64,000 nt of DNA from assembly GCA_046583355.1 (NCBI GenBank), contig JAYGCM010000018.1:1302-65301 (forward strand). Reading direction: 5' to 3'. Source of the DNA: Deltaproteobacteria bacterium. GTDB lineage: Bacteria; Desulfobacterota; Binatia; UBA12015. The notes beneath the pieces were generated by a model. The model saw only the letters and a list, made by a program, of their open reading frames with translations. It was not told where the DNA came from and made no database searches. The stretch's first letter is position 1. Every line of letters starts with the position of its first letter. The position numbers and the translations under genes are program-made. This document shows, one piece after another, positions 5,634 to 36,222 of the stretch.

Positions 5634-7373
5634 ATGCGAGCTACACGCTTTTTGCCTTGGTTTGGTCTGGTCGCTCTCCTGGCGCTCTTCTTCAGCCGGA
5701 TCGCGGGTTTCCCCCTACAAGACCCCGATGAGGGGCGTTACGCCGCCATCCCTCTGGCCATGCTGGCCCAGGGCGATTGGCTCACGCCCATGTTGGCGGG
5801 CATTCCTTATTTCGAGAAGCCGCCGCTTTTCTATTGGTTGATCGCGGCTTCTTTTGAACTCTTCGGGCCTTCGGCCTTCGCCGCACGCTTCGTCTCGGCG
5901 CTGGCAGCACTTGCGACGGTCGCGATGACCTATGCCTTCGCCCGTCATGTTTTCGGGCGACGTGCCGCATTACTCGCGGCGGGCATGCTCGCCACGGCAC
6001 CGCTGTTCTTCTTCCTCTCGCAGGCAGCTGTGATCGATATGCTGCTGACCGCCTGTTTCACCGCAACGATGCTCGCCTTCTTCCTCGCCTGCGAGGCCGA
6101 GGAAAAAGGACGCTGGATCGCCGTTGTCTGTGTAGCTGCGGCGCTCGGCTTATTAGCCAAGGGGCTCGTGGCATTGGCGCTGCCGGGGGCGATCGCGCTT
6201 CTTCTGCTCTTGCTGCGCCGCGACCTGGGAACCTTGCGGGCGCTGCTGCGGCCTTGGCCGATTCTACTTTTCCTTGCCGTCGGTGCGCCTTGGTTTATCT
6301 GGATCAGCATCGAGCACCCGGCCTTCCCGGATTATTTTTTCATCCAACAACATTTCAATCGCTTCCTCGATGCCGGTGCGCACGACCTACCGCACGTCGA
6401 GGGGCGCTTTTTCTATATCCCCGTGATTCTCGGTGCGGCACTTCCGTGGTCACTGGTGCCTTTGCTGCTCGTATTACGGGAGCGCGGGCGTGGTGCCTTC
6501 TCGTTGCTACGCCGCGACCTGCTGCTCTTCCTGGGCGTCTGGGCACTCGGCGTCGTCGGGTTCTTCTCGCTCTCAAGCTCCAAATTGGCACCCTATATTC
6601 TGCCCGCCTTCCCGCCAATCGCGCTCGCGGTGGGCGCCTGGCTGGATGCAGCATTGGACGATGAAGCGGCCTTTGATCCTCTGGGGCGTAGCCTTTGGCT
6701 TGGCGTGCTCGGCCTGGGAATCGTATTGGCGCCGGTGGGCGTGGTGGCGTCGGTCTTCGCGCAGCCTCTGGCCGAAGCCTTCCCGACCGACGCAGAGGAC
6801 CTGCGTGCCGTAGGCGGTGGCGTGCTCTGGGCGGGACTCGCCCTTCTCGGTGGCGGGCTACTCTGGCGACGACTGGCCGGGGCGGGGCGCTTGCTGCCCG
6901 TGGATGCCTTCTTGCTGCTGGTGCTTACGCTGGGAGCAACCGAGGTTGGCGCGATGGGCGCGAGGGCGGTTGCCAAATCCGGCATCTACGCCGCGCGCGT
7001 GATCAACGCCGAGGCCGGCCCGGACGACCGCATCGTGCTCTACCATCAGCTGAGCCCGTCGCTGCTCTTCTACTCGGCGCGGCGCGTGGTGCATGTGGAG
7101 GATTTCGGCGAAATCACCGAGTTGGTCGCGATGCTCCCCGAGTCGGAGCGTGAAGAATGGTTCTGGGAAGACGACGAGCAGCTTTTGCGCGAATGGAACT
7201 CCGAGAAGCGGGTCTTCCTCTATATAGACCAGCGGCGGCTCGATGCATTGCAGCCGCGTCTCGGACGACCCGCCCGGCTGCTGGCGCAGAACCGCAGGCG
7301 CGTTCTGGTGGACAATCCGGCAGTGTCGGCGGCAGGGCTGCCACCGGCTGCCGTTGGCCCGACCTCCAGATAG
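5634..7373 (+). CDS. glycosyltransferase family 39 (ArnT/PMT-like) membrane protein
   Basis: N-terminal DEGRYAAIPLAM...YFEKPPLFYW motif typical of ArnT/PMT GT-C enzymes. Many TM helices; 579 aa. Confidence 0.8.
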   Translation: MRATRFLPWFGLVALLALFFSRIAGFPLQDPDEGRYAAIPLAMLAQGDWLTPMLAGIPYFEKPPLFYWLIAASFELFGPSAFAARFVSALAALATVAMTYAFARHVFGRRAALLAAGMLATAPLFFFLSQAAVIDMLLTACFTATMLAFFLACEAEEKGRWIAVVCVAAALGLLAKGLVALALPGAIALLLLLLRRDLGTLRALLRPWPILLFLAVGAPWFIWISIEHPAFPDYFFIQQHFNRFLDAGAHDLPHVEGRFFYIPVILGAALPWSLVPLLLVLRERGRGAFSLLRRDLLLFLGVWALGVVGFFSLSSSKLAPYILPAFPPIALAVGAWLDAALDDEAAFDPLGRSLWLGVLGLGIVLAPVGVVASVFAQPLAEAFPTDAEDLRAVGGGVLWAGLALLGGGLLWRRLAGAGRLLPVDAFLLLVLTLGATEVGAMGARAVAKSGIYAARVINAEAGPDDRIVLYHQLSPSLLFYSARRVVHVEDFGEITELVAMLPESEREEWFWEDDEQLLREWNSEKRVFLYIDQRRLDALQPRLGRPARLLAQNRRRVLVDNPAVSAAGLPPAAVGPTSR

Positions 7374-7439
7374 TCATCAAGGCGGATGTGGCGGCATCGC
7401 TGCCGGATCGCTAGGCTTCGGGCGGAGAGAAGCTGAGCT

Positions 7440-8048
7440 ATGGCAACCGAAATTCAAGAGTTTCTGAACCCGGACGGTCGACCGGGGGGATCGGATGCGC
7501 GCGACTCCTTCTTCACCTCACGGTACGAAGACGCGCTCGCGTGGGCGCAGAAGTACGCCATGTTCCAATACCCCTTCGTGACGGCCTGCTGCGGCATGGA
7601 ATATATGTCAGTTACCGGGCCGCGCTACGACACCGACCGCTTCGGCATGACGCTGCCGCGCTTCACGCCGCGCCAATCGGACCTGCTCCTTGTGGTCGGC
7701 ACGATCACGCAGCGCCAGGCGCCGGTTCTGCGTCGTATCTTCGACCAGATGGCCGACCCCAAATGGGTGATGTCCTTCGGCAATTGCACCAATACGGGCG
7801 GGCCCTACAACAACTACGCCGTGGTCCAGGGCATCGACGAAATCATTCCGGTCGATATCTACATTCCCGGCTGTCCGCCGCGTCCAGAGGCCGTGATCGA
7901 CGGCCTGCTGAAGCTGCAGGAGCGGATTCGTCGCGAACGCAAGGGTCAGCCGGTCGAGAATATTCACGGGCGCATCAAGGCGCTTGATTTCCAGGCCGGC
8001 AAGCCGGCGCAGATTCTTCCAGGCACGGTTCCGAACAGCCATGAGTGA
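7440..8048 (+). CDS. nuoB: NADH-quinone oxidoreductase subunit B
   Basis: FVTACCGMEYM, GNCTNTGGPY, IPGCPPRPEA motifs binding cluster N2; 202 aa. Confidence 0.95.
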   Translation: MATEIQEFLNPDGRPGGSDARDSFFTSRYEDALAWAQKYAMFQYPFVTACCGMEYMSVTGPRYDTDRFGMTLPRFTPRQSDLLLVVGTITQRQAPVLRRIFDQMADPKWVMSFGNCTNTGGPYNNYAVVQGIDEIIPVDIYIPGCPPRPEAVIDGLLKLQERIRRERKGQPVENIHGRIKALDFQAGKPAQILPGTVPNSHE

Positions 8049-9714
8049 TGCACCGACGGCTCCGGCCGACGACAATCAAGTCCGCCTGACGATCGACGGC
8101 CAGGAACTCGTCGCCGAGAAGGGGCAGATGCTCCTGCAGGTCGCGCTCGATAACGGCGTCGAGATTCCGCATTATTGCTACCACCCAAAACTTTCGATCG
8201 ACGGAAGCTGTCGGATGTGTCAGGTCCACGTCGAGGGTGGCCGCAAGCTGGCAATCTCGTGCAACGAGCCGGTGCGCGACGGCATGGTTGTCGACACCAA
8301 ATGCGAAGAGGTCGAGCAGGCCCGCAAGGGAGTGCTTGAACTCCTGCTGGTCAACCACCCGCTCGATTGTCCGATTTGCGATCAAGCCGGCGAGTGTTTC
8401 CTGCAAGATTATTCCTTCGGCTATGGGCGCGACCATGCGCGTACCACGGCGCCGCGTCGCAAAGGCGTGAAGCGCGAGCCGATCGGTGAGCATGTGATCT
8501 TTGACCAGGAGCGCTGCATTCTCTGCCGGCGCTGTGTGCGTTTCACCAACGAGATTTCCAAAACCGATGAGTTGCGGGTCTTCGGCATCGGCGACCATTC
8601 CCATATCGGTACGCTGCCCGAAGCACCTCTCAATAACGATTATTCCGTCAACGTGGCCGATGTCTGCCCGGTCGGAGCCTTGCTCTCCAGCGACTTCCAC
8701 CACAAGCGTCGGGTGTGGTTTCTCGAAGATACCGAAAGTGTTTGTCCGAGTTGCTCGAAGGGCTGCAATGTCCAGCTTGGCGTCTTCAAGAACGAGGTCC
8801 AACGCCTCGTGCCGCGGCGCAACGACGAGGTCAACGACACCTGGATGTGTGACCACGGCCGGCTCCGCTACGCCTTCCTGCAAGACGAGACGCGCATCCG
8901 CGCGGCGCGCGCAGCCGAAAATGGCAGCCCTGCCGTTGCAGTATCGCTTGATGATGCGCTCGGACGTGCTGCCGAAGCCCTGAAGGCGGCCAAGGAAAAT
9001 CCGGCGAGTCTCGCGGTGGTCGCCTCGCCGCATCTCACCAACGAAGAAAGCTTCCGCTTCGCGGCCCTTGTGAGCGACACATTGGCAGCCGCACATATGC
9101 TCCTGGCCATTCCCCTTGGCGACTCCGACGACTTCCTGATTCAGGCCGAAAAGGCCGCGAACGGCCGCGGGGCCCGCGAGGTCGGCGCGGCGGTGCGCGG
9201 GCATGATGCCGAGGCCTTGCTGGCCGCCATTGAAAACGGCGAAGTCAAAACACTTTATTGTGTGGGTAGCGAGCTTCTTCAGGCTGCCGATGAGGCGCTG
9301 GTCCTCGCGGCCGTTGCGAAACTCGATATGCTGATTGTGCAGGACTCCAACGAGTCGGCGCTGAGTGCGGCCGCCACTATCGTTCTGCCTGGACTGACCT
9401 TTGCCGAGAAAGACGGCTCGTTCACCAATGGCGAGGGCCGGGTGCAGCGCATCCGTCGCGCCTTGAACGCCCCGGAGGGGTTGCTCAGCGACGGCGAGAT
9501 CTTCGCTGTTCTGGAGGCGCGTATCTCCGGTGCGGCTGAGAATGCTTTTGACGCAGCAAGCACGCTTGAGGCAATTGCCGCCGCGGTTCCGGAATATGCC
9601 GGGATGAGCTTTGCGCGCCTTGGCGACCAGGGCGTGCCGGTAGGCGAGGGCGTCGTCTTGCCTGCGCCGGAGCCCGCCGGGGCAGGCACCGAATCGCCGG
9701 CGGAGGGTGCGTAA
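8041..9714 (+). CDS. nuoG: NADH-quinone oxidoreductase subunit G (short form, 557 aa)
   Basis: ATGAGTGA overlap with the nuoB stop. 2Fe-2S motif (CYHP...CRMCQV), N1b motif (HPLDCPICDQAGEC), CILCRRCVRF, CPVGAL. C-terminal molybdopterin-like domain is shortened. Confidence 0.9.
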   Translation: MSDAPTAPADDNQVRLTIDGQELVAEKGQMLLQVALDNGVEIPHYCYHPKLSIDGSCRMCQVHVEGGRKLAISCNEPVRDGMVVDTKCEEVEQARKGVLELLLVNHPLDCPICDQAGECFLQDYSFGYGRDHARTTAPRRKGVKREPIGEHVIFDQERCILCRRCVRFTNEISKTDELRVFGIGDHSHIGTLPEAPLNNDYSVNVADVCPVGALLSSDFHHKRRVWFLEDTESVCPSCSKGCNVQLGVFKNEVQRLVPRRNDEVNDTWMCDHGRLRYAFLQDETRIRAARAAENGSPAVAVSLDDALGRAAEALKAAKENPASLAVVASPHLTNEESFRFAALVSDTLAAAHMLLAIPLGDSDDFLIQAEKAANGRGAREVGAAVRGHDAEALLAAIENGEVKTLYCVGSELLQAADEALVLAAVAKLDMLIVQDSNESALSAAATIVLPGLTFAEKDGSFTNGEGRVQRIRRALNAPEGLLSDGEIFAVLEARISGAAENAFDAASTLEAIAAAVPEYAGMSFARLGDQGVPVGEGVVLPAPEPAGAGTESPAEGA

Positions 9715-10260
9715 ATGGCGACTCGTATCGTAACCGTCGACCGAGAAAAATACCGCAAGGCGGCGGGGCCTTTTGGAGTCCGGGCTATCATGGTCGGACT
9801 CGGCGTCACTTCGCGTCATTTCTTCGGCAACCTCTGGGGCTGGATCATCGGCAAGCCTACCGTGGCCACCGTGATGTTCCCCGAGGAGCATCTGCCCAAG
9901 CCGCCCGCATTTCGTGGCATGCCCGTGCTGGTCGAAATGGACGGCGGCAAAGAGCGCTGCGTTGCTTGCGGCCTTTGCGAATGGGCCTGCCCGGTCGATT
10001 GCATTCATATCGAACCCGCCGAGACCAGCGACGAGGTCGAGCGTTACCCGCAGGTCTTCGACATCGATATGGGTCGTTGCATGTATTGCGGCCTCTGCGA
10101 AGAGGCCTGCCCCGAGGAAGCGATTGTCATGAGCGACCGCGTCGAGATCTCCGCCTTCACGCGTGCGGGAACGATGTGGCGCAAGAGCGACCTCCTGGTG
10201 CCCGCGAGCAAGCTCACGCGGCGCCTTGAGTATCTTCGCCGGAACTACGATCGGAGTTAG
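9715..10260 (+). CDS. nuoI: NADH-quinone oxidoreductase subunit I
   Basis: Two 4Fe-4S ferredoxin motifs (CVACGLCEWACP, CMYCGLCEEACP). ATG immediately follows the nuoG TAA. Confidence 0.9.
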   Translation: MATRIVTVDREKYRKAAGPFGVRAIMVGLGVTSRHFFGNLWGWIIGKPTVATVMFPEEHLPKPPAFRGMPVLVEMDGGKERCVACGLCEWACPVDCIHIEPAETSDEVERYPQVFDIDMGRCMYCGLCEEACPEEAIVMSDRVEISAFTRAGTMWRKSDLLVPASKLTRRLEYLRRNYDRS

Positions 10261-10262
10261 CC

Positions 10263-10814
10263 GTGGCCGACGACGCAGAGAACCAGGAGACGGCCGCCGA
10301 GGACGTGGCGGCCGAGTCCGTCCATCCCCTTTTTGCTCGCCTCGGCGAGAAATTCCCCGAAGGCATACTGGCAACAGCCGACTATCGCGGCGACCTATGC
10401 GCGACCATCGAGCGCAAGGCGTTGGTTGCTATAATGACTTTCCTGCGCGACCAAGAAGGCTTCGAGATGCTTCTCGACGTCACGGCCGTCGATTATCTCG
10501 GCCGCGCGCCGCGCTTCGAGATTGTCTATCACCTCGTTTCGCTCGAAGAGGCCACGCGCGTGCGCGTGAAAGTCCCGCTGGAAGAAGCGGATGTGAAAAT
10601 TCCATCCTTGACGAAGCTCTGGACTGGCGCCGATTGGCTCGAGCGCGAGACCTTCGATATGTACGGCATTGAATTCACCGGGCATCCGAACCTCAAGCGA
10701 ATTTACCTCTATGAGGAGTTCGTGGGCCACCCCCTGCGCAAGGACTACCCGAAAGAGAAGCGGCAGCCTCTGATCGGCCCCGGCGCGATCACCCGCAGCG
10801 GCGAGGCCGATTGA
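10263..10814 (+). CDS. nuoC: NADH-quinone oxidoreductase subunit C
   Basis: GTG start; 30-kDa subunit motifs (ERETFDMYGIEFTGHPNLKRIY). Confidence 0.9.
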   Translation: MADDAENQETAAEDVAAESVHPLFARLGEKFPEGILATADYRGDLCATIERKALVAIMTFLRDQEGFEMLLDVTAVDYLGRAPRFEIVYHLVSLEEATRVRVKVPLEEADVKIPSLTKLWTGADWLERETFDMYGIEFTGHPNLKRIYLYEEFVGHPLRKDYPKEKRQPLIGPGAITRSGEAD

Positions 10815-10815
10815 G

Positions 10816-12024
10816 ATGGCAGAGCAGATCCAGATAGAGGACGATACCATCGAGTTGCCACATGAGCCGCTTGAGATGAAGCTCGGCCCCTCGCATCCGG
10901 CCACGCATGGCACGGTGCGGATTCTTCTCAAACTCGACGGTGAGACCATTCTCAGCTGCGAGGTTGAGGTGGGCTATTTGCACCGCGGCTTCGAGAAGGA
11001 ATGCGAAAGCGGCCTCTATTACCAGGCATTCCCCTACACCGACCGGCTGAATTACGTCTCGCCGATGATCAATAATGTCGGCTACGCATTGGCCTGCGAA
11101 AAGCTCTTCGGCGTCGAGGCCCCCGAGCGTTGTCAGTACCTGCGCGTCATCGCCAGTGAGGCGTCGCGCATTGCTGACCACCTGACTTGCCTGGGTGCCT
11201 GCGCGCTGGAACTCGGTGCGTTTTCCGCCTTCCTCTATGCAGTCGAGGCGCGCGAGAGTGCCTGGGATATTCTGGACTCGATGTGCGGCGCGCGCGTTAC
11301 GCCCAATTACGTTCGCATTGGCGGCGTATCGCATGACACTGACCCCGACTTTCCCGAATTGGCGCGCGAGAAACTCGCTGAAGTCGCGCGTTTGCAGAAA
11401 GATTTCGAAGACCTCCTGCTCGCCAACCCGATCTTCCGTGAGCGCATGGAGGGCACCGGCGTGCTCGGTCGCGAAGAACTTATCTCCTTCGGCGTGACCG
11501 GACCTCTGCTGCGCGCAGCCGGCGTGCCCTACGACCTGCGTCGCGTCTCTCCCTATCTGGTCTACGACCGCCTCGACTTCGATATTCCGGTCGGTTCGAC
11601 GGGCGATAACTTCGACCGCTTCCTGGTCCGCCTTGAAGAGATCCGTCAAAGCGCGGGCATGATCGACCAATGCTTGAACGATATGCCAGAGGGGCCGGTC
11701 GATATCGACGATCCGCAGATCCGCTTGCCTGGCAAGAGCAAGGTTTTCGGGCAGATGGAAGAATTGATTGCACAATTTAAAATTGTCACCGAGGGGCCAA
11801 AGCCGCCGGCTGGCGAGGTCTATCAGGCAGTCGAAGGCGGCAACGGTGAGCTCGGCTTCTACCTGGTCAGCGACGGAAGCGGGAAGCCTCTGAAATGCCG
11901 TGCGCGTTCGCCGAGTTTTTCCAATACGGCAGCGCTCGGAAAAATGGTCGAAGGGAGCATGTTCGCCGACGTGGTGCCTACCTTCGATATGGTCAATATG
12001 ATCGGCGGCGAGTGCGACCGTTGA
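10816..12024 (+). CDS. nuoD: NADH-quinone oxidoreductase subunit D
   Basis: 49-kDa subunit: LGPSHPATHG, GYLHRGFEK, RIGGVSHD; 402 aa. Confidence 0.95.
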   Translation: MAEQIQIEDDTIELPHEPLEMKLGPSHPATHGTVRILLKLDGETILSCEVEVGYLHRGFEKECESGLYYQAFPYTDRLNYVSPMINNVGYALACEKLFGVEAPERCQYLRVIASEASRIADHLTCLGACALELGAFSAFLYAVEARESAWDILDSMCGARVTPNYVRIGGVSHDTDPDFPELAREKLAEVARLQKDFEDLLLANPIFRERMEGTGVLGREELISFGVTGPLLRAAGVPYDLRRVSPYLVYDRLDFDIPVGSTGDNFDRFLVRLEEIRQSAGMIDQCLNDMPEGPVDIDDPQIRLPGKSKVFGQMEELIAQFKIVTEGPKPPAGEVYQAVEGGNGELGFYLVSDGSGKPLKCRARSPSFSNTAALGKMVEGSMFADVVPTFDMVNMIGGECDR

Positions 12025-12034
12025 GGATATTTGC

Positions 12035-12541
12035 ATGGCACTCTCTGAAGAGCTGAAGCAACGAATTCGGGCCGAATTCCCGAAATACCCTGAGAAACGG
12101 GCGGTGCTGATTACCGCCCTGCATTTTGCGCAGGAAGAAGGCGAAGGCTGGATTGAAGCCTCCGTCATCCCGGAAATCGGTGCCTTGCTCGATATTCCAG
12201 CGATTGACGTCAAAGAAGTCGTCAGCTTCTACGCGATGTTCAACGAGTCGCCGGTGGGCAAGCGCCATCTGCGGGTTTGTACCGGCCTTTCCTGCTGCCT
12301 GCGCGGTGCGCGCCGCCTGCAGAACAGGATCCAGGACGATCTCGACCTGCGACCCTTCGAGGTGACGGCCGATGGCGTCTTCTCGGTCGGCTCGGTCGAA
12401 TGCCTGGGTTCCTGCGGCACGGCGCCAGTCCTGCAAGTGAACAACCGGGTCTATATCGAGAACCTCGGAAGCGATGATGTTCCAGCGTTGCTTGATAATC
12501 TGCGTCGCGAAGTCGCAGACGAAGATGCGGAGAGTGCCTGA
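12035..12541 (+). CDS. nuoE: NADH-quinone oxidoreductase subunit E
   Basis: 24-kDa subunit 2Fe-2S motif (CTGLSCC...CLGSCGTAP); 168 aa. Confidence 0.9.
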   Translation: MALSEELKQRIRAEFPKYPEKRAVLITALHFAQEEGEGWIEASVIPEIGALLDIPAIDVKEVVSFYAMFNESPVGKRHLRVCTGLSCCLRGARRLQNRIQDDLDLRPFEVTADGVFSVGSVECLGSCGTAPVLQVNNRVYIENLGSDDVPALLDNLRREVADEDAESA

Positions 12542-12543
12542 TC

Positions 12544-13848
12544 GTGGCTGTCACCGAGATGATGGACCGTCCGGGCCTTCTCCTGCCTCCGGGCGACGAG
12601 AATTGGTCGTCAATAGACGAATATAAATCCCATAGGGGTTATGCTGCGGCGACCTTGGCGGTCGGCAAGATGGATCCCGCGAGCCTGGTTGATCTGGTCA
12701 AGGAATCGGGGCTACGCGGCCGCGGCGGCGCAGGCTTCTCGGCCGGAATGAAATGGTCGTTTCTGCCCAAAGACGGCCGGCGTCCGCGCTATATCGCGTG
12801 TAACGGCGACGAGAGCGAACCGGGGACGTTCAAAGATCGCCAGATCCTTGAGCGTAATCCGCATAAGCTGATCGAGGGGCTTCTGATTGCCGGCTGGACC
12901 AACACGATCGATGCCGCCTACGTCTACCTTCGCGGCGAGTACCGTGGCGCCTATGACAACCTCGTGCGCGCCGTCGACGAGGCCTATGCGGCTGGTTTTC
13001 TCGGCAAGAATATTCTCGGCAGTGGCATGGATTTCGAGGTCTACGTCCACCGCGGCGCGGGCGCTTATATCTGTGGCGAAGAGACCGGCCTGATGGAGTC
13101 ACTCGAGGGCCGCAAGGGGCAGCCACGCAAGCGGCCTCCGTTCCCGGCGGTCGCCGGGCTATGGGCCCAGCCGACGGTGATCAACAACGTCGAGACGATG
13201 GCGCATGTGCCGTCCATCGTTCTGGACGGTGTCGAGAATTTCAAAAGCTACGGCACCGAGAAGAGTTCCGGCACGACAATTTTCGGGATCAGTGGCGATG
13301 TCCTGAAACCTGGCGCCTACGAGCTTCCCTTCGGGATCCATCTGGACAAGCTCATCAATGAGGTCGCCGGTGGCCTGGCCCCTGGGCGTACGCTCAAGGC
13401 GGTAATTCCTGGTGGCACCTCGATGCCTGTTCTGACCGCCGACATGGTTCAGGGCCTGCCCATGGACCACGATTCGGTGCAGAAGGCTGGGTCTTTGCTC
13501 GGCACCGGCGCCGTCATCGTGATGGACGATAGGCAATGTATGGTGCGTGCCGGACTCGTGATCGCACGTTTCTTCCGCCATGAATCCTGCGGGCAATGTA
13601 CCCAATGCCGCGAGGGCACAGGCTGGATCCACAAACTCTTCCTGAAGATCGAGAGCGGGGCCGGGACCATGGCCGATATCGACACCATCGAGGAAGTGGC
13701 TAGCTTCATGGAAGGCCATACTATCTGCGGTCTCGCCGATGCCGCTTCGTGGGGCGCGGGTTGGTTCGTGCGCCGCTTCCGCTCTGAATTCGAGGCTCAT
13801 ATCGAGCAGGGCTGTTGCCCGCTCGCCGACACTTCCTTCGAGGTCTGA
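12544..13848 (+). CDS. nuoF: NADH-quinone oxidoreductase subunit F
   Basis: 51-kDa subunit: GLRGRGGAGF FMN/NADH site, ESCGQCTQCREG N3 cluster motif; 434 aa. Confidence 0.95.
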   Translation: MAVTEMMDRPGLLLPPGDENWSSIDEYKSHRGYAAATLAVGKMDPASLVDLVKESGLRGRGGAGFSAGMKWSFLPKDGRRPRYIACNGDESEPGTFKDRQILERNPHKLIEGLLIAGWTNTIDAAYVYLRGEYRGAYDNLVRAVDEAYAAGFLGKNILGSGMDFEVYVHRGAGAYICGEETGLMESLEGRKGQPRKRPPFPAVAGLWAQPTVINNVETMAHVPSIVLDGVENFKSYGTEKSSGTTIFGISGDVLKPGAYELPFGIHLDKLINEVAGGLAPGRTLKAVIPGGTSMPVLTADMVQGLPMDHDSVQKAGSLLGTGAVIVMDDRQCMVRAGLVIARFFRHESCGQCTQCREGTGWIHKLFLKIESGAGTMADIDTIEEVASFMEGHTICGLADAASWGAGWFVRRFRSEFEAHIEQGCCPLADTSFEV

Positions 13849-13852
13849 CGCC

Positions 13853-14137
13853 ATGAGTGACGCTGCAAACCAAGCTGCTGTGCTCCGCCGCAACGATGTG
13901 GTGCGTCTTTGGGGCACCCCGGATGCCACCGAGGGAAGCCTGAACGACCCCCGGATACGCCGCGAGAACGGCATCTCCTGGAACGAAAAATGGGTCTATA
14001 AGCGCCCGGCGGGTGAGGCCAGTCGGCCGCGCCAGCGCGTCCTCTATTGGCAGCGTTATGACTTCATCGCGGCCGAGCGGGTCGAAGAAGATGGTCATTG
14101 TGTCCGTGAATCAGCGGCCGAAATCCTTGCGCGCTGA
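13853..14137 (+). CDS. small hypothetical protein (possibly DUF2845-like), co-transcribed with nuoF
   Basis: ATG 4 nt after the nuoF stop; 94 aa. Motifs RLWGTPD...EKWVYKRP...YWQRYDFIAAERV faintly resemble DUF2845. No signal peptide. Confidence 0.4.
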   Translation: MSDAANQAAVLRRNDVVRLWGTPDATEGSLNDPRIRRENGISWNEKWVYKRPAGEASRPRQRVLYWQRYDFIAAERVEEDGHCVRESAAEILAR

Positions 14138-14280
14138 GCATTTTGCCGTACCACGACGCATCTGCCAGCGCATCACCTATACTGGGCATTAATCCGCTAT
14201 TGCTGAACATCCGATGTCCCCGTAGGCTTTCTTGATGCCCAGCCTTTCGGCCGGGTTGCTGGTCTGTGGAGATACCCCCA

Positions 14281-15762
14281 ATGAAGGTTCGTTTTTCGCG
14301 TTTCATCACGCTTCCCTTTGTCTGTCTGGTCGTCACTCTCGCCACGCTCTCGTCGTGCGCCAAGAAGAACGAGCCGCCTCCGGTACCGGATGGGTTGCAA
14401 ATCCTGCTTGAAGATGGCGATTCATTGCCGGGGAATTTCGTGATCCTCTCGATCGAATCCGCCAATATGGCGGCCGATCGCTCGATCTCCTTCATTGCCT
14501 CGCGGACGGGGTTGCCGTCGCTCAACGGTGTCTTCTACCGAACGCCTACAGGCGATATCCGGACGATCCTCACACCGGAGTCCGAGCAGGCCGGCGAGCT
14601 CTCCTTCACCACAGTTCGTAACCTCACCATGGCCCAAACCGGCGAGTTCGCCTTCCAGGTCGGCAACCGTCTCGACGACGACGGGCTCTTCTATTCCGAT
14701 GGCGAGACGCTGACCACGCTTGCCACGACGGATTCGGACGATGTCCTCGACGGCTTCCGGCTTCTCGGGGAATTGCGCGTTGCCAGCGGAGGTTCGGTCG
14801 CCTTCAGCGACGGAACCAGTCCCTGTATCGTGGACTCGTCAGGCGCGCAGGACCGTCTCACCTGCGACCTGCGGCTTCATTACGGGATGCCCGGTGATAT
14901 CCGCACCGTCAATGTTCCCAATGCGATGACCAACCAGAAGGCCAGTACCCTGATCCTGCAGGTCAACGCGAAAGCCGAGTTTGCCGTCGGGCTTCCGGCG
15001 CGCGGTGACGAACCCATGGTCGGCCGAATTCGTGACGGAATCTTTGAAGCACTGCTGACCCGGCGCGAGACTCTGCCGGGTCTGGGTGTCCTCACCGCCG
15101 CAAAGCCTCGCGCGATCGGCGCCAGCGGCGCGATCGGAATCGATGGGAGCTTCGACACGACCGGCGACGGCGACAAGGATACCGTACGCGTTCTCCTTTA
15201 TCGCGATGGCAATATCGAGGCGGCGGCCTCGACCTTGGATCAGACCCAATTGGGCGAGATAGTCGACCTGAACGCGGTTGCTGTCGATGACCGCGACCAC
15301 CTCTACTATACCGCCGAATTTGTGGTGGACGGCGACGAACGTGACCTCTTGCGTGTCTGGGATGGCACCGAAACCCGAGACATCATCTGGGATCGGATGT
15401 GGTACGGGGGCACGGATCCCAAGGGCCGGCGGCTGGCGATCACCGAAATCGTCCAGACTCGCGTCCTGGGCGACGGTACGGTGCTGATCATCGTGACGAT
15501 CGGCTTCTTCGAGGAGGGTACCCGTAAAATCACATCCAAGCAGCTTCTGCGTTGGCAGGACGGAGAGATCACCACGATCCTGCAGTCCAAGAGTCCGATC
15601 GGTGAGGGCACGCGCACCCTGGTCGGCTTCCAGATCGCCGATCTCAACTCGGCGGGCGACCTTCTTCTGATCGGCGAGATCAACGCGAAGTCAAACCGCG
15701 CACTTCTGCTTCTCCCGAGCGACGAAGTCTACGGCACGGCGACAAACGACGACAGCGCTTAG
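14281..15762 (+). CDS. lipoprotein of unknown function (repetitive D/G-rich, possibly beta-propeller-like)
   Basis: Signal peptide with lipobox LATLSS-C. GGAG lies 9 nt upstream of the ATG. Recurrent DG/DGT-containing segments. Confidence 0.55.
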   Translation: MKVRFSRFITLPFVCLVVTLATLSSCAKKNEPPPVPDGLQILLEDGDSLPGNFVILSIESANMAADRSISFIASRTGLPSLNGVFYRTPTGDIRTILTPESEQAGELSFTTVRNLTMAQTGEFAFQVGNRLDDDGLFYSDGETLTTLATTDSDDVLDGFRLLGELRVASGGSVAFSDGTSPCIVDSSGAQDRLTCDLRLHYGMPGDIRTVNVPNAMTNQKASTLILQVNAKAEFAVGLPARGDEPMVGRIRDGIFEALLTRRETLPGLGVLTAAKPRAIGASGAIGIDGSFDTTGDGDKDTVRVLLYRDGNIEAAASTLDQTQLGEIVDLNAVAVDDRDHLYYTAEFVVDGDERDLLRVWDGTETRDIIWDRMWYGGTDPKGRRLAITEIVQTRVLGDGTVLIIVTIGFFEEGTRKITSKQLLRWQDGEITTILQSKSPIGEGTRTLVGFQIADLNSAGDLLLIGEINAKSNRALLLLPSDEVYGTATNDDSA

Positions 15763-16928: not shown

Positions 16929-17531
16929 TTAGCGACGCTTCTTCGCGCCGGCCTTTTTCTTCTTGGCTGCGGCTTTTTTCTTCGGCGCAGCCTTTTTCTT
17001 GGCCACGGCCTTTTTCTTCGGCGCAGCCTTTTTCTTGGCTACGGCCTTTTTCTTCGGTGCAGCCTTTTTCTTGGCTACGGCCTTTTTCTTCGGTGCAGCC
17101 TTTTTCTTGGCTACGGCCTTCTTCTTCGGCGCGGCCTTTTTCTTGGCTACGGCCTTCTTCTTCGGCGCAGCCTTTTTCTTGGCTACGGCCTTCTTCTTCG
17201 CCACCGTCTTTTTGACGACAGGCTTAGTCGCAGTAGCTTTCTTCTTGCTACCGGCCTTTTTCTTGGCTGCGGCGCGCTTGGCTGCTGTGCGCTTCTTGGC
17301 GGCTTCGAGCTTCTTGCGAGCTGCTTCTTCCGAGAACTTTACGCCACCGACTTTGTAACGGCCGCGAACCTTCGGCTGGTACCGCAGGCGCATGGTGATC
17401 TTGTGCTGCTCGTAATGCTTTTCGCAGCGCCAGCCCTTGAAGGCTTTCTCGCTACAAAGAACACAAAGGCCCATGGCACGGTGCTTGCGCTGCCAGCGAG
17501 CCTGGCGACTGATTTGAGATGCGTCTTTCAT
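16929..17531 (-). CDS. histone H1-like / nucleoid-associated K/A-repeat protein with N-terminal Cys/His motif
   Basis: AGGAGG RBS 5 nt upstream of the ATG. N-terminus has C-x2-C-x9-C-x2-H. C-terminal tail is 6 x KKKAVAKKKAAP plus further AKK-rich sequence; 200 aa. Confidence 0.7.
   Translation of the reverse strand: MKDASQISRQARWQRKHRAMGLCVLCSEKAFKGWRCEKHYEQHKITMRLRYQPKVRGRYKVGGVKFSEEAARKKLEAAKKRTAAKRAAAKKKAGSKKKATATKPVVKKTVAKKKAVAKKKAAPKKKAVAKKKAAPKKKAVAKKKAAPKKKAVAKKKAAPKKKAVAKKKAAPKKKAVAKKKAAPKKKAAAKKKKAGAKKRR
16975..17215. repeat. perfect 36-bp tandem repeat array (~6.5 copies) encoding the KKKAVAKKKAAP repeats
   Basis: Unit ggcgcagcctttttcttggctacggcctttttcttc recurs head-to-tail with only silent or near-silent variants. 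Lies inside the CDS; there are no spacers, so it is not CRISPR. Confidence 0.85.
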
Positions 17532-33401: not shown

Positions 33402-34165
33402 TGGTGACGCGCAACTCTATACCCGTGCCGGCAATTTCCACCTCGATGCGAATAGTCGCCTCGTGAACGGACAGGAATTTGCGGTGCAGGGTTTCGCACT
33501 GGACGCCGCGGGCAACGCGGTAGCAGGCGCGAGCGATATCGATTTCAGCAGCGTCAGCGCCAGTGCAGTCGAGACGACTCGGCTCGATATCTCGAACAAT
33601 CTCTCCGCCGATGCACAGGTAGTGGTTGGTGGATTTGACGGCAGTAGTTTCGCTGCCGCCTACGGCTCGAGCAATTATGCCACGACGACCAGGGTCTTCG
33701 ACTCACTCGGGCGTTCGCATGAGATGACACTCTTTTTCACCAAAACCGGTGCGAATGCCTGGGAGGTCAATGTCGGCGTCAATCGCGAGGATCTTCCGGG
33801 CAGGCAACCCCGCCGGACTCCAGATCATGGGCACGACAGGCGTGACCTTCGATGGGACGGGCGCCCTGACCGCGCCGGCCCCATTGGATATCGCGGTGAC
33901 CTTCGATGGCGCGGCCGCCCAGACCGTAGGGATCAACCTGGGCACGCCAAGCACCACTCCGGGCGACGGCCGAGTCCGGCACAGCCGAGGTGGGAACAGC
34001 GGCGGCCTGGGGAGCATCATTGGCTCCGCGATTGAGCGTGCCAATGTGGAGCTGGCAAAGGAGTTCGTTGACCTCATCTCTTTGCAGCGCAGCTTCCAGG
34101 CGAATGCCCGGGTCATCACAACCAGCGATGGCCTGCTCAATGAGCTGATCAATATCGTTCGTTAG
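33364..34165 (+). pseudogene. flgE: flgE (flagellar hook protein) remnant, N-terminally truncated and frameshifted
   Basis: Frame 1 has MAIEGSGFFVL...YTRAGNFHLD...VQGF and DSLGRSHEMTLFFTKTGANAWEV. After ~33790 the FlgE-like sequence continues in frame 2 (NPAGLQIMGTTG...ANVELAKEFVDLISLQRSFQANARVITTSDGLLNELINIVR). The ~80 N-terminal residues are absent. Confidence 0.7.
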
Positions 34166-36222
34166 GGCGCGATGGCTTCGGCGGGGGCGGGCCATGAGGG
34201 AGGATAGTCGCCCAATGGCTCAGGCCCCTTTCGGCGGCGCAACTCGGCGAAAATACGCCGCGATTGCGCGAGCTGCGCCGGGGAATATTTCAAGCGCAGG
34301 ATCTGAACGCCATCATGGTCGTAGACCAGCTCAAGGCGCGGTTGCCGGGCGAGTTTGCGGGCGTCGACGATCCCGCGTGCCGATCGACTGAAATAATAAT
34401 AACCGACGCCGCGCAGCAGCAGCTGGTTGAGCTTGCGATCAGCGAAACCGGGCTTGCGTTGCAAAGCGAATTGCCTTGCCGCCCGTTGCAGAAAGCGCGG
34501 CGCAAGCGGCGCGAGCATCGGCCCCGGGATCGTTTGGTGGCCGGTGAAGTAGGGGATCCAATAGCCGCCGTCGGTCCCCACGATGAAGTCCGGGAAGAGG
34601 GCATGGCCCGCGATCGCAAAGCGTTCGCGCGGGGCGACATTCTCGCGAATCCAGGCGAATGCTTCGATATCGGCGGTTTCGACGAGATTATGGGCGGCCG
34701 GAATTTCCTCGATCCTTGTGGGCAGCGAGAGCAGCCCGAGGACGAAAGCCGTACCGACGGCCGCCCTCTGCCAGGAGTCCTGGCGTGCCAGCGGCAGCAT
34801 CTCCCCGACGGCCTGGACGCCACAACCGAGCAGGAGAGCCAGCGGAAAATAGAGAAATATCAGAACAGAATTCAACGGTACGATATTCAGAACATGGATG
34901 CCTAAGTAGGGCACAGCGCCGAGCAGAAGGAGTGCGAGCGTCCAGGCCAGAACGATCCGACTCAGACGTTCGCCGCGCAAAAGCGCGATCGCGCCGAAAC
35001 TCAGGCCGGCAAAAATCAGCAGAGGCGAGCCCACCCATTGTGTGAGAGGGAGGGATTCCCATGTCCGGAAATACTCCTCTGCGTTCAGCCCACGCAGGTC
35101 ACCAGTCCCCGACCATGAATTGCCGTCGCTGGCGAGGAACCAATGCCCCCAGACCCAATGCCACAAGCCGCGGCCATAGCGTGGCAGGAGCAGCAGCAGG
35201 GCAGCCAAGCCGCCGCCGAGCACGGGGAGAAGGAGCTTTCTCATCCGTCCACTGCCTCGTGCCGCGGCCATCTCATGGGCGAGCGTGAAGAGCAGGAGAG
35301 GAACAAGAAAAAGCGCCACACGCAGATGCACCAGGGCTACGGCGGCCGAAAGAAGAATGGCGAAAGCGCCGAGGATGGCGGTTGGTGGGCCGGCGGCCGA
35401 CGAGGATGGCCGGTGCAGGCGGCGCAGCCACTCCCAACTGACGACCCAGGCAATCGGCAGAATCGCCTGGCCGGCGACCTGGGTGAAGCGGCCCCACCCG
35501 AGATACGCACTCGGCATGGAATTGATCAGACCGACGCTGAGGGCACCCACCAGGGCAGCCGGCCGTGAGACGTGGCGGTCAAGCACCAGATAAACACCGA
35601 GGGCGGCCAGCGCATTGAGAAGTTGGCCCATCCACACCAGCGCGACAAAACCCTCCACATTGCCGAGCCAGGCCGTAGCGGCGGTGATCGCATAGAGGCC
35701 AAGGTGGTAGCGATCCAGCTCGATGGCCGGGAAGACGGGCATCGTCTGCGGTAAAAGACCGCTGCGCGCCACCTCTTCAGTCAGCATGGCATGGTGCAGG
35801 GAATCGGTAAGGGGAGGCACGGGGAAGAGATCGGCAAGCCAGGCCCGCAGGCCGACGATCAGCGCGAAGGCCAAGAGCGCCAGGGCCTCTCCCGATCCGA
35901 CGCGAAGCGTCGCGGGGCGCCGCCAGAGTTGGGCCAGGACCATCAGCCCCGCCAGGCCGATTAGGACCTGGAAAAAACCGGCCTCCAGCGGCGGCCAGGT
36001 GGGCCAGACGACGCGCAAGACGCCGGCGGCGGCGAAGAGGAGAGGCGGTAGAGCGGCGCCGATTCCGGCGGCCACGAGCCAGCCCTGGAGGCCACGAAAG
36101 CTCCGATCGAGGCCACAGGCGCCCAGCAGGGCACGGCCCGGCAAAAGCAATAGGGCGAGTGCAGCGAGTGCGGCGCAAAGTTCGGCGTGGCTCGAAGGCA
36201 TGGCTGAGGAACCTGGTATCAT
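34162..36222 (-). CDS. large polytopic membrane protein of unknown function (possible GT-C-like)
   Basis: 686 aa; >10 predicted TM helices in the first ~450 aa and a C-terminal soluble domain. No recognisable catalytic motif. Confidence 0.55.
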   Translation of the reverse strand: MIPGSSAMPSSHAELCAALAALALLLLPGRALLGACGLDRSFRGLQGWLVAAGIGAALPPLLFAAAGVLRVVWPTWPPLEAGFFQVLIGLAGLMVLAQLWRRPATLRVGSGEALALLAFALIVGLRAWLADLFPVPPLTDSLHHAMLTEEVARSGLLPQTMPVFPAIELDRYHLGLYAITAATAWLGNVEGFVALVWMGQLLNALAALGVYLVLDRHVSRPAALVGALSVGLINSMPSAYLGWGRFTQVAGQAILPIAWVVSWEWLRRLHRPSSSAAGPPTAILGAFAILLSAAVALVHLRVALFLVPLLLFTLAHEMAAARGSGRMRKLLLPVLGGGLAALLLLLPRYGRGLWHWVWGHWFLASDGNSWSGTGDLRGLNAEEYFRTWESLPLTQWVGSPLLIFAGLSFGAIALLRGERLSRIVLAWTLALLLLGAVPYLGIHVLNIVPLNSVLIFLYFPLALLLGCGVQAVGEMLPLARQDSWQRAAVGTAFVLGLLSLPTRIEEIPAAHNLVETADIEAFAWIRENVAPRERFAIAGHALFPDFIVGTDGGYWIPYFTGHQTIPGPMLAPLAPRFLQRAARQFALQRKPGFADRKLNQLLLRGVGYYYFSRSARGIVDARKLARQPRLELVYDHDGVQILRLKYSPAQLAQSRRIFAELRRRKGPEPLGDYPPSWPAPAEAIAP

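Follow-up and report, generated by a model that had tools for sequence, protein, structure and literature searches.

Gene content of the hydrophilic nuo cluster

The window analysed here is a 64-kb stretch of DNA from a 'Deltaproteobacteria bacterium' (assembly GCA_046583355.1, contig JAYGCM010000018.1), and its subject is a compact cluster of seven nuo genes, nuoB-G-I-C-D-E-F, which encode the hydrophilic subunits of NADH:quinone oxidoreductase (complex I), followed by a small conserved gene that we denote x94. As detailed below, this cluster very probably encodes the peripheral arm of a normal complex I of 14 subunits, and the gene arrangement in related genomes suggests that the membrane operon is located elsewhere in the genome.

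The window sequence contains no Ns, and its G+C content is 60-67%. An earlier note, made on this DNA without database searches, recognized all seven hydrophilic nuo genes, tightly packed at positions 7440-13848, and this was borne out by searches against Pfam and NCBIfam and by inspection of the gene junctions (Table 1). All Pfam domains expected of peripheral-arm subunits were found in the seven proteins, and six of these (NuoB, C, D, E, F and I) exceed the respective NCBIfam cutoffs, NuoG being the exception. The start of nuoG overlaps the stop of nuoB, the two genes sharing 8 nucleotides (nt; ATGAGTGA); there is no gap (0 nt) between nuoG and nuoI, and the remaining intergenic gaps are 2 nt (I/C), 1 nt (C/D), 10 nt (D/E) and 2 nt (E/F). 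The 94-amino acid (aa) open reading frame (ORF) x94 starts 4 nt past nuoF. The sequence shared by nuoB and nuoG, the adjacency of nuoG and nuoI, the small ORF behind nuoF and the position of the cluster 66 nt behind a same-strand gene for an ArnT/PMT-like glycosyltransferase (which ends at 7373, nuoB starting at 7440) had all been described in the earlier note and are accurate.

The same holds for the reported absence of nuoA, H, J, K, L, M and N from the flanks. A tblastn search of the 64-kb window, in every frame, with the NuoA/H/J/K/L/M/N sequences of a close relative gave no match, and the polytopic proteins encoded in the window were identified as a Gate-family transporter, AcrB, YggT, a CDP-alcohol phosphatidyltransferase and one protein with 12 transmembrane (TM) segments without a Pfam match.

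Cofactor and quinone-site motifs

Cofactor-binding motifs were checked by regular-expression searches of the translated genes. NuoB retains the ligands of the iron-sulfur (Fe-S) cluster N2, namely, the tandem Cys50-Cys51, Cys116 (in GNC) and Cys145 (in GCPP). NuoG contains the ligand motifs for N1b, N5 (HxxxCxxCx5C) and N4 (CxxCxxC), along with an N7-like CxxCxxxC; NuoI contains two CxxCxxCxxxCP motifs (N6a and N6b, at residues 82 and 122); and NuoE contains the CxxxxC and CxxxC ligand motifs of the 2Fe-2S cluster N1a. In NuoF, both the motif of the flavin mononucleotide (FMN)/NADH site, GAGAYICGEE, and the N3 motif CGQCTQC are present. The quinone-site histidine and tyrosine of NuoD are found in HPATHG (from residue 27) and PYTDRLNY (from residue 73), respectively, and both motifs have aligned counterparts in the mitochondrial 49-kDa subunit. 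Loss of these quinone-site residues was not observed across the clade.

In comparisons with proteins of known structure, NuoD scored 344 bits with the mitochondrial 49-kDa subunit, 326 with Nqo4 of Thermus thermophilus and ~295 with Escherichia coli NuoCD, as compared with 137 bits for the membrane-bound hydrogenase (MBH) and 121 for formate hydrogenlyase (FHL, subunit 5). No NiFe-type CxxC pair was detected in the NuoD sequence. By both the scores and this lack of a CxxC pair, NuoD is not a subunit of a group 4 membrane-bound [NiFe] hydrogenase of the FHL/MBH type.

NuoG is a short form, as had been recognized in the earlier note along with the truncation of the C-terminal domain, and domain searches and structure-based alignments agree on this. 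The 557-aa protein matches the Pfam domains Fer2_4, NADH-G_4Fe-4S_3, Fer4_Nqo3 and, partially, Molybdopterin; alignments with PDB entries are limited to the first ~330 residues and, within the molybdopterin-like domain, a single short segment. Neither Pfam searches nor the PDB alignments detected a C-terminal Molydop_binding or NADH_dhqG_C domain. Because of this short C-terminus, NuoG falls below the TIGR01973 cutoff. Judging by their sequences, the proteins encoded in the cluster look like genuine complex I subunits.

Conservation of the gene order and a separate membrane-arm operon

Gene order was surveyed by tblastn over 105 fetched loci (referred to by L numbers). The related sequences recovered all come from metagenome-assembled genomes (MAGs) or metagenome contigs, none from a cultured organism. 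NuoD homologs that are 80-96% identical to the window protein occur in many metagenomes and, where named, carry the labels 'Deltaproteobacteria bacterium', Methylomirabilis or Binatia; the lineage itself comprises MAGs of uncultured bacteria that bear the names 'Deltaproteobacteria bacterium' or 'Candidatus Binatia'. About 17 distinct loci among the relatives, their NuoD proteins 61-96% identical to that of the window, show the order B-G-I-C-D-E-F-x94. The canonical order A-B-C-D-E-F-G-H-I-J-K was seen only where NuoD identity drops below 55% (Rokubacteria, Betaproteobacteria and Gemmatimonadetes). The earlier statement that the gene order differs from that of nuoA-N is therefore correct, and with its recurrence in ~17 loci, the B-G-I-C-D-E-F order is a trait of the lineage rather than a one-off. 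In the relative L101 (ENA ERZ24794639 NODE_75; NuoD 82% identical, 349-kb contig), the region between proC and AcrB is collinear with that of the window, and no membrane nuo genes were found within 10 kb of its cluster.

The complementary gene set, A-H-J-K-L-M-N without other nuo genes, is present in about 17 loci where NuoH is at least 71% identical to the NuoH of the lineage. Such a standalone membrane operon, lacking nuoB, C, D and I, can function only with a peripheral arm encoded at another locus. The two sets were directly linked on the 100-kb JGI contig L008 (NuoD 78% identical), where the hydrophilic operon on the plus strand and nuoN-M-L-K-J-H-A on the minus strand are convergent, with the two stop codons 66 bp apart. 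The GTDB species representatives were then scanned with exact peptide patterns, the concatenated query consisting of the window NuoD and a NuoH of the lineage. In three MAGs (Table 1), one hydrophilic and one A-H-J-K-L-M-N operon each were found on different contigs, with one NuoD locus and one NuoH locus per MAG among the 80 loci kept. Both operons also co-occur in the single metagenome assemblies ERZ27265269 and ERZ27247963.

The membrane subunits of the lineage consist of 118 (A), 368 (H), 162 (J), 104 (K), 648 (L), 515 (M) and 488 (N) aa. Across four genomes (six pairs), the mean identities of the hydrophilic (B, D, F and I) and membrane (H, L, M and K) subunits are congruent (r = 0.97). 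Such congruent divergence would be expected if the two halves of one enzyme were vertically inherited together; it is no proof of assembly. The flanks of the membrane operon are conserved as well: upstream, on the opposite strand, are genes for a PAPS (3'-phosphoadenosine 5'-phosphosulfate) reductase, a patatin, and NTP_transferase and APH family proteins, and downstream is a gene for a 1200-1300-aa Big_2 protein. These flanks provide a landmark for locating the membrane operon in the genome of the window organism. Look-ups of NuoH (P0156 and P0157) returned other samples, neither that of the window nor that of its collinear relative.

Several contigs with the A-H-J-K-L-M-N operon of the lineage carry implausible names, namely, a 'Klebsiella pneumoniae' MAG, 'Enterobacteriaceae' and 'Flavobacteriales bacterium' (L033, L043 and P0159), which suggests mis-binned or mislabelled MAG contigs.

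A different split was observed in MAGs labelled Myxococcota or 'Deltaproteobacteria', where B-I-C-D-x94 (L045 and L047-L050) and A-E-F-G-H-J-K-L-M-N (L093) make up the two gene sets. In this arrangement, the NADH-oxidizing N-module travels with the membrane genes and x94 with the quinone-reducing Q-module.

Table 1. Coordinates of the nuo genes, neighboring genes and related loci
Feature	Sequence	Position	Strand	Characteristics
nuoB	window	7440-8048	+	202 aa; Pfam Oxidored_q6; NCBIfam TIGR01957, 203 bits (cutoff 143)
nuoG, short form	window	8041-9714	+	557 aa; TIGR01973, 423 bits (below cutoff 470)
nuoI	window	9715-10260	+	181 aa; TIGR01971, 119 bits (cutoff 113)
nuoC	window	10263-10814	+	183 aa, GTG start; Complex1_30kDa, E = 1e-45; TIGR01961, 149 bits (cutoff 122)
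nuoD	window	10816-12024	+	402 aa; NF004739, 464 bits (cutoff 360)
nuoE	window	12035-12541	+	168 aa; TIGR01958, 151 bits (cutoff 142)
nuoF	window	12544-13848	+	434 aa, GTG start; TIGR01959, 585 bits (cutoff 559)
x94	window	13853-14137	+	94 aa; no Pfam or NCBIfam match
ArnT-like GT-C glycosyltransferase	window	5634-7373	+	579 aa, ~11 TM segments; Pfam PMT_2, PMT, Arnt_C
Predicted lipoprotein	window	14266-15762	+	498 aa; no Pfam match
Histone H1/HC2-like protein	window	16929-17531	-	200 aa; Cys/His-rich N-terminus
Polytopic protein	window	34162-36222	-	686 aa, ~12 predicted TM helices; no Pfam match
Hydrophilic operon	L008	6401-13377	+	
nuoN-M-L-K-J-H-A	L008	13444-20724	-	
Membrane-arm operon	L010	9629-16904		conserved flanks
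Membrane-arm operon	L014	9619-16860		conserved flanks
Membrane-arm operon	L102	9628-16922		conserved flanks
Paired operons, MAG Bin_38_12	VFKT01000239 (NuoD), VFKT01000234 (NuoH)			loci L022 and L019
Paired operons, MAG OFTM293	JAJCZO010000251 (NuoD), JAJCZO010000020 (NuoH)			loci L020 and L026
Paired operons, MAG K_DeepCast_65m_m2_035	VGTG01000148 (NuoD), VGTG01000013 (NuoH)			loci L021 and L024
Cys-rich ORF	L002	6128-6337		precedes nuoB
Cys-rich ORF	L005	6398-6607		precedes nuoB
Cys-rich ORF	L008	6401-6610		precedes nuoB
Cys-rich ORF	L009	6394-6612		precedes nuoB
arn-like operon	L002	1-6126		upstream of nuoB
arn-like operon	L005	457-6362		upstream of nuoB
arn-like operon	L016	1-6234		upstream of nuoB

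A complex I probably encoded by two operons

The best account of these observations is that, in this lineage, the 14 nuo genes are sorted by the solubility of their products into two transcription units. The first unit, (small Cys-rich ORF)-nuoB-G-I-C-D-E-F-x94, encodes the cytoplasmic, cofactor-bearing subunits, and the second one, nuoA-H-J-K-L-M-N, the seven membrane subunits. The window contains the first unit, with the N-module (NuoE, F and G) and the Q-module (NuoB, C, D and I), whereas the second should lie more than ~7 kb upstream or more than ~50 kb downstream of the cluster. In the assembled enzyme, NADH would be oxidized at the FMN of NuoF, and electrons would pass along the Fe-S chain of NuoF, G, I and B to a quinone bound at the interface of NuoD, NuoB and NuoH, with protons pumped by NuoH, A, J, K, L, M and N. 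The presence of the partner operon in the window organism and the assembly of the two sets into one complex are what we infer from the relatives. Of the two possibilities raised in the earlier note, a membrane arm encoded elsewhere is strongly supported by L008 and the three MAGs; its description as an unusual split is overstated given that the split is the rule across the lineage and has precedents in other bacteria.

Several points weigh against this interpretation. The membrane operon of the window organism itself is deduced from relatives, and the NuoD of the closest GTDB species representative is 81% identical to that of the window; the only exact match to the window is a 4.7-kb Logan contig. 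The operon pairings in MAGs hold only if the contigs were binned correctly. With a genome scan based on exact peptide patterns, a second, canonical nuoA-N operon could have been missed. NuoG is ~130-350 residues shorter than the structurally characterized NuoG, Nqo3 and 75-kDa proteins and scores below the NCBIfam equivalog cutoff. Finally, complex formation and the NADH:quinone oxidoreductase and proton-pumping activities are predicted from the genes.

Among the alternatives, the one that fares best, while still unlikely, is that the cluster is a redundant, paralogous peripheral-arm set, specialized or decaying, in a genome that also carries a complete canonical nuoA-N operon. The presence of two complex I gene sets in one genome has precedents: in Bdellovibrionota, a standalone nuoAHJKLMN is accompanied by a second, often complete, set (PMC13147790). 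Moreover, in other 'Deltaproteobacteria' or Binatia MAGs (L051-L054 and L061), nuoD is directly followed by nuoH, and the pattern-based scan could have missed distant paralogs in the three paired MAGs. However, the cluster is strongly conserved, with NuoD 80-96% identical among the relatives and all cofactor ligands intact, and the A-H-J-K-L-M-N operon of the lineage, which lacks its own B, C, D and I, needs exactly such a hydrophilic set; furthermore, each of the MAGs yielded a single NuoD and a single NuoH locus among the 80 loci kept.

The earlier note also entertained a soluble NADH-oxidizing module docked to another partner. In this scenario, which we consider very improbable, the cluster would provide electron input to a partner resembling a hydrogenase or a formate dehydrogenase (FDH), or to an unknown partner in the membrane, with a possible link to the ArnT-like protein. 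NuoEFG-type modules also serve Hox hydrogenases and NAD-dependent FDHs, and the absence of membrane nuo genes from the 64-kb window fits this scenario, as does the adjacency of the ArnT-like gene and nuoB, which is kept in the close clade despite the loss of arnBCAD and of the Cys-rich ORF. However, the matches to the NCBIfam HoxU, HoxE and Fdh models are far below the cutoffs and reflect homology, and the Q-module is complete, so that the cluster does not qualify as a Hox or FDH diaphorase. This Q-module, in which the N2 ligands are in place along with the His and Tyr of the quinone site, has no known role without NuoH and NuoA, and a perfectly complementary A-H-J-K-L-M-N operon is available in the lineage. 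No hydrogenase or FDH catalytic genes were found in the window or in the related loci, no alternative partner genes are conserved beside the cluster, and distant loci with the same nuo order lack the adjacent ArnT-like gene. It is hardly conceivable that the membrane genes are in fact contiguous with the cluster and were separated by misassembly, binning or a contig break: although the evidence comes mostly from metagenome assemblies, the window is unbroken and free of Ns over 7 kb upstream and 50 kb downstream of the cluster, and the same flanks, collinear from proC to AcrB, recur in independent assemblies of different samples, including contigs of 349 and 377 kb.

The x94 protein and the Cys-rich ORF

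The x94 gene closes the hydrophilic operon in every relative, following nuoF or, in the B-I-C-D clusters, nuoD. The protein has the conserved motif FNEKWxYxRP...YWxRYDF and is represented by only 81 sequences (representatives) among 1.84 billion proteins. The AlphaFold2 model is confident (predicted local distance difference test score, pLDDT, of 86.7). Nevertheless, a profile search of PDB gave nothing relevant (best E = 0.25), and a Foldseek comparison of the model with PDB detected no fold match (best E = 0.12). The protein is probably cytoplasmic because no signal peptide or TM segment was predicted. The x94 family is restricted to the lineage, has no known relative and is a mildly new item.

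For x94, a part in the peripheral arm is plausible, either as an accessory subunit or in assembly. It would belong with the Q-module, as it stays beside B-I-C-D where E, F and G have moved (L045 and L047-L050 as opposed to L093). Apparent NuoF-x94 fusions, two database proteins with a C-terminal NuoF domain joined to x94 (P0285 and P0333), were considered as evidence of a physical link and rejected, the sequences appearing to be frameshifted or read through.

In most relatives, the first gene of the hydrophilic operon is a 69-aa Cys-rich ORF (MANLxCPxCGCxIAVDRG..VVYCCQxC) with a weak match to Metallothio_Pro. This ORF is absent from the window, where only positions 7374-7439 separate nuoB from the upstream gene, and from L101. 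A broader proposal, in which x94 is a new type of accessory subunit or assembly factor confined to a Binatia/Myxococcota-related group with arm-sorted nuo genes and, in most relatives, the Cys-rich ORF is a second such factor, involved, for example, in metal or Fe-S handling, can be put forward only tentatively and is rather doubtful.

The ArnT-like glycosyltransferase and other neighboring genes

The gene upstream of nuoB, assigned to family GT39 in the earlier note, encodes an ArnT-like glycosyltransferase that scores 190 bits against the ArnT equivalog model NF009784, far below the cutoff of 567, and arnB, C, A and D are absent from the window. The protein is, by sequence comparison, a member of the broader PMT_2/GT-C family and falls short of the ArnT equivalog. 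No terminator-like or sigma-70-like promoter site was detected in the 66-nt gap between the two genes, so that their co-transcription is possible. The adjacency was found only in the clade with NuoD identity of at least ~80% and is absent in L008, L009, L028 and L031-L038; more distantly related loci that share the nuo order have unrelated genes upstream of the cluster, for a cytochrome c (L008) or HU (L009). With the adjacency limited to the close clade, a functional link between the ArnT-like protein and complex I was rejected, and the weight that the earlier note had placed on this gene as a functional partner is unsupported. We read the arrangement as clade-specific synteny, not functional coupling, and the ArnT-like gene as no part of complex I.

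In three relatives with NuoD of ~80% identity, from lake and soil samples, a full arn-like operon lies upstream of nuoB, separated from it by the Cys-rich ORF (Table 1), and encodes an aminotransferase, a GT2 glycosyltransferase, a formyltransferase, an epimerase/dehydratase, a deacetylase and ArnT; the epimerase/dehydratase is present in L002 and L016 and missing in L005. Of this operon, nothing but the ArnT-like gene (44-56% identical) is left in the window and in L101, where a divergent phasin gene is now its neighbor.

Downstream of the cluster, the gene for a predicted lipoprotein directly follows x94 in the close clade (42-70% identity), though not in L008 or L009; the window protein has no Pfam match, and its relatives show a faint match to DUF7453. 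Further downstream, on the minus strand, is the gene for a protein that resembles histone H1/HC2-like DNA-binding proteins, its N-terminus being rich in Cys and His and the long repeat (AAPKKKAVAKKK...) in Lys and Ala; its position is kept in the relatives, with weak HC2 matches in L005. The polytopic 686-aa protein is encoded at a greater distance, also on the minus strand.

Comparison with known complex I systems and implications

Compared with the canonical complex I (Nqo1-14 of T. thermophilus, NuoA-N of E. coli and the mitochondrial core), the lineage has the same seven peripheral subunits, in which no Fe-S, FMN or quinone-site motif is missing, and the relatives of the window encode the usual set of seven membrane subunits, all of normal size. 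The differences are in the organization, B-G-I-C-D-E-F plus A-H-J-K-L-M-N instead of one operon from nuoA to nuoN; in the length of NuoG, 529-564 aa in the lineage as opposed to 632-910 aa in the bacterial NuoG chains among the PDB matches; and in the addition of x94 and, in most relatives, of the 69-aa Cys-rich ORF.

Split arrangements of nuo genes are on record. Complex I is reportedly encoded by all Binatota genomes (PMC8262859), and split nuo clusters have been found in most clades (PMC12361115). A standalone nuoAHJKLMN cluster in a 'split arrangement' has been described in Bdellovibrionota (PMC13147790), a former 'deltaproteobacterial' phylum, where this cluster occupies one conserved chromosomal site and the other nuo genes are elsewhere. 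In contrast to the window lineage, whose genomes seem to have a single operon of each kind, hydrophilic and membrane, predatory Bdellovibrionota add a second nuo set, a complete 14-gene operon in Peredibacter (PMC13147790). Marine actinomycetes (Streptomyces, Salinispora and Kocuria) also carry partial nuoAHJKLMN operons consisting of the same seven membrane-arm genes (PMC6676996); there, however, nuoAHJKLMN is one additional copy (PMC6676996), whereas in the window lineage it is apparently the only partner of the hydrophilic operon. The 11-subunit complex I-like enzymes of Desulfitobacterium (PMC11238625) and Desulfurivibrio (PMC12142623) and cyanobacterial NDH-1 likewise show that complex I modules are genetically separable. 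These enzymes lack NuoE, F and G, whereas the window cluster includes the three subunits and retains the FMN/NADH site, and therefore appears to belong to a full NADH-oxidizing enzyme. The split arrangement is thus ordinary for the lineage, has precedents elsewhere and is of an already documented kind. A literature search found no description of the B-G-I-C-D-E-F order, of arm-sorted operons in Binatota or Myxococcota, or of x94.

For genome annotation, the implication is that a contig of this lineage that carries only the hydrophilic genes should not be scored as an incomplete complex I or as a soluble NADH dehydrogenase. The separate operons for cytoplasmic and membrane subunits represent a natural example of arm-wise genetic modularity that fits the modular assembly of complex I. 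The sorting by arm also fits the reported dispensability of nuo gene order for complex I assembly in E. coli (Oppermann et al. 2022, as cited in PMC12361115). Finally, x94 provides a small lead toward a new accessory or assembly protein of bacterial complex I.

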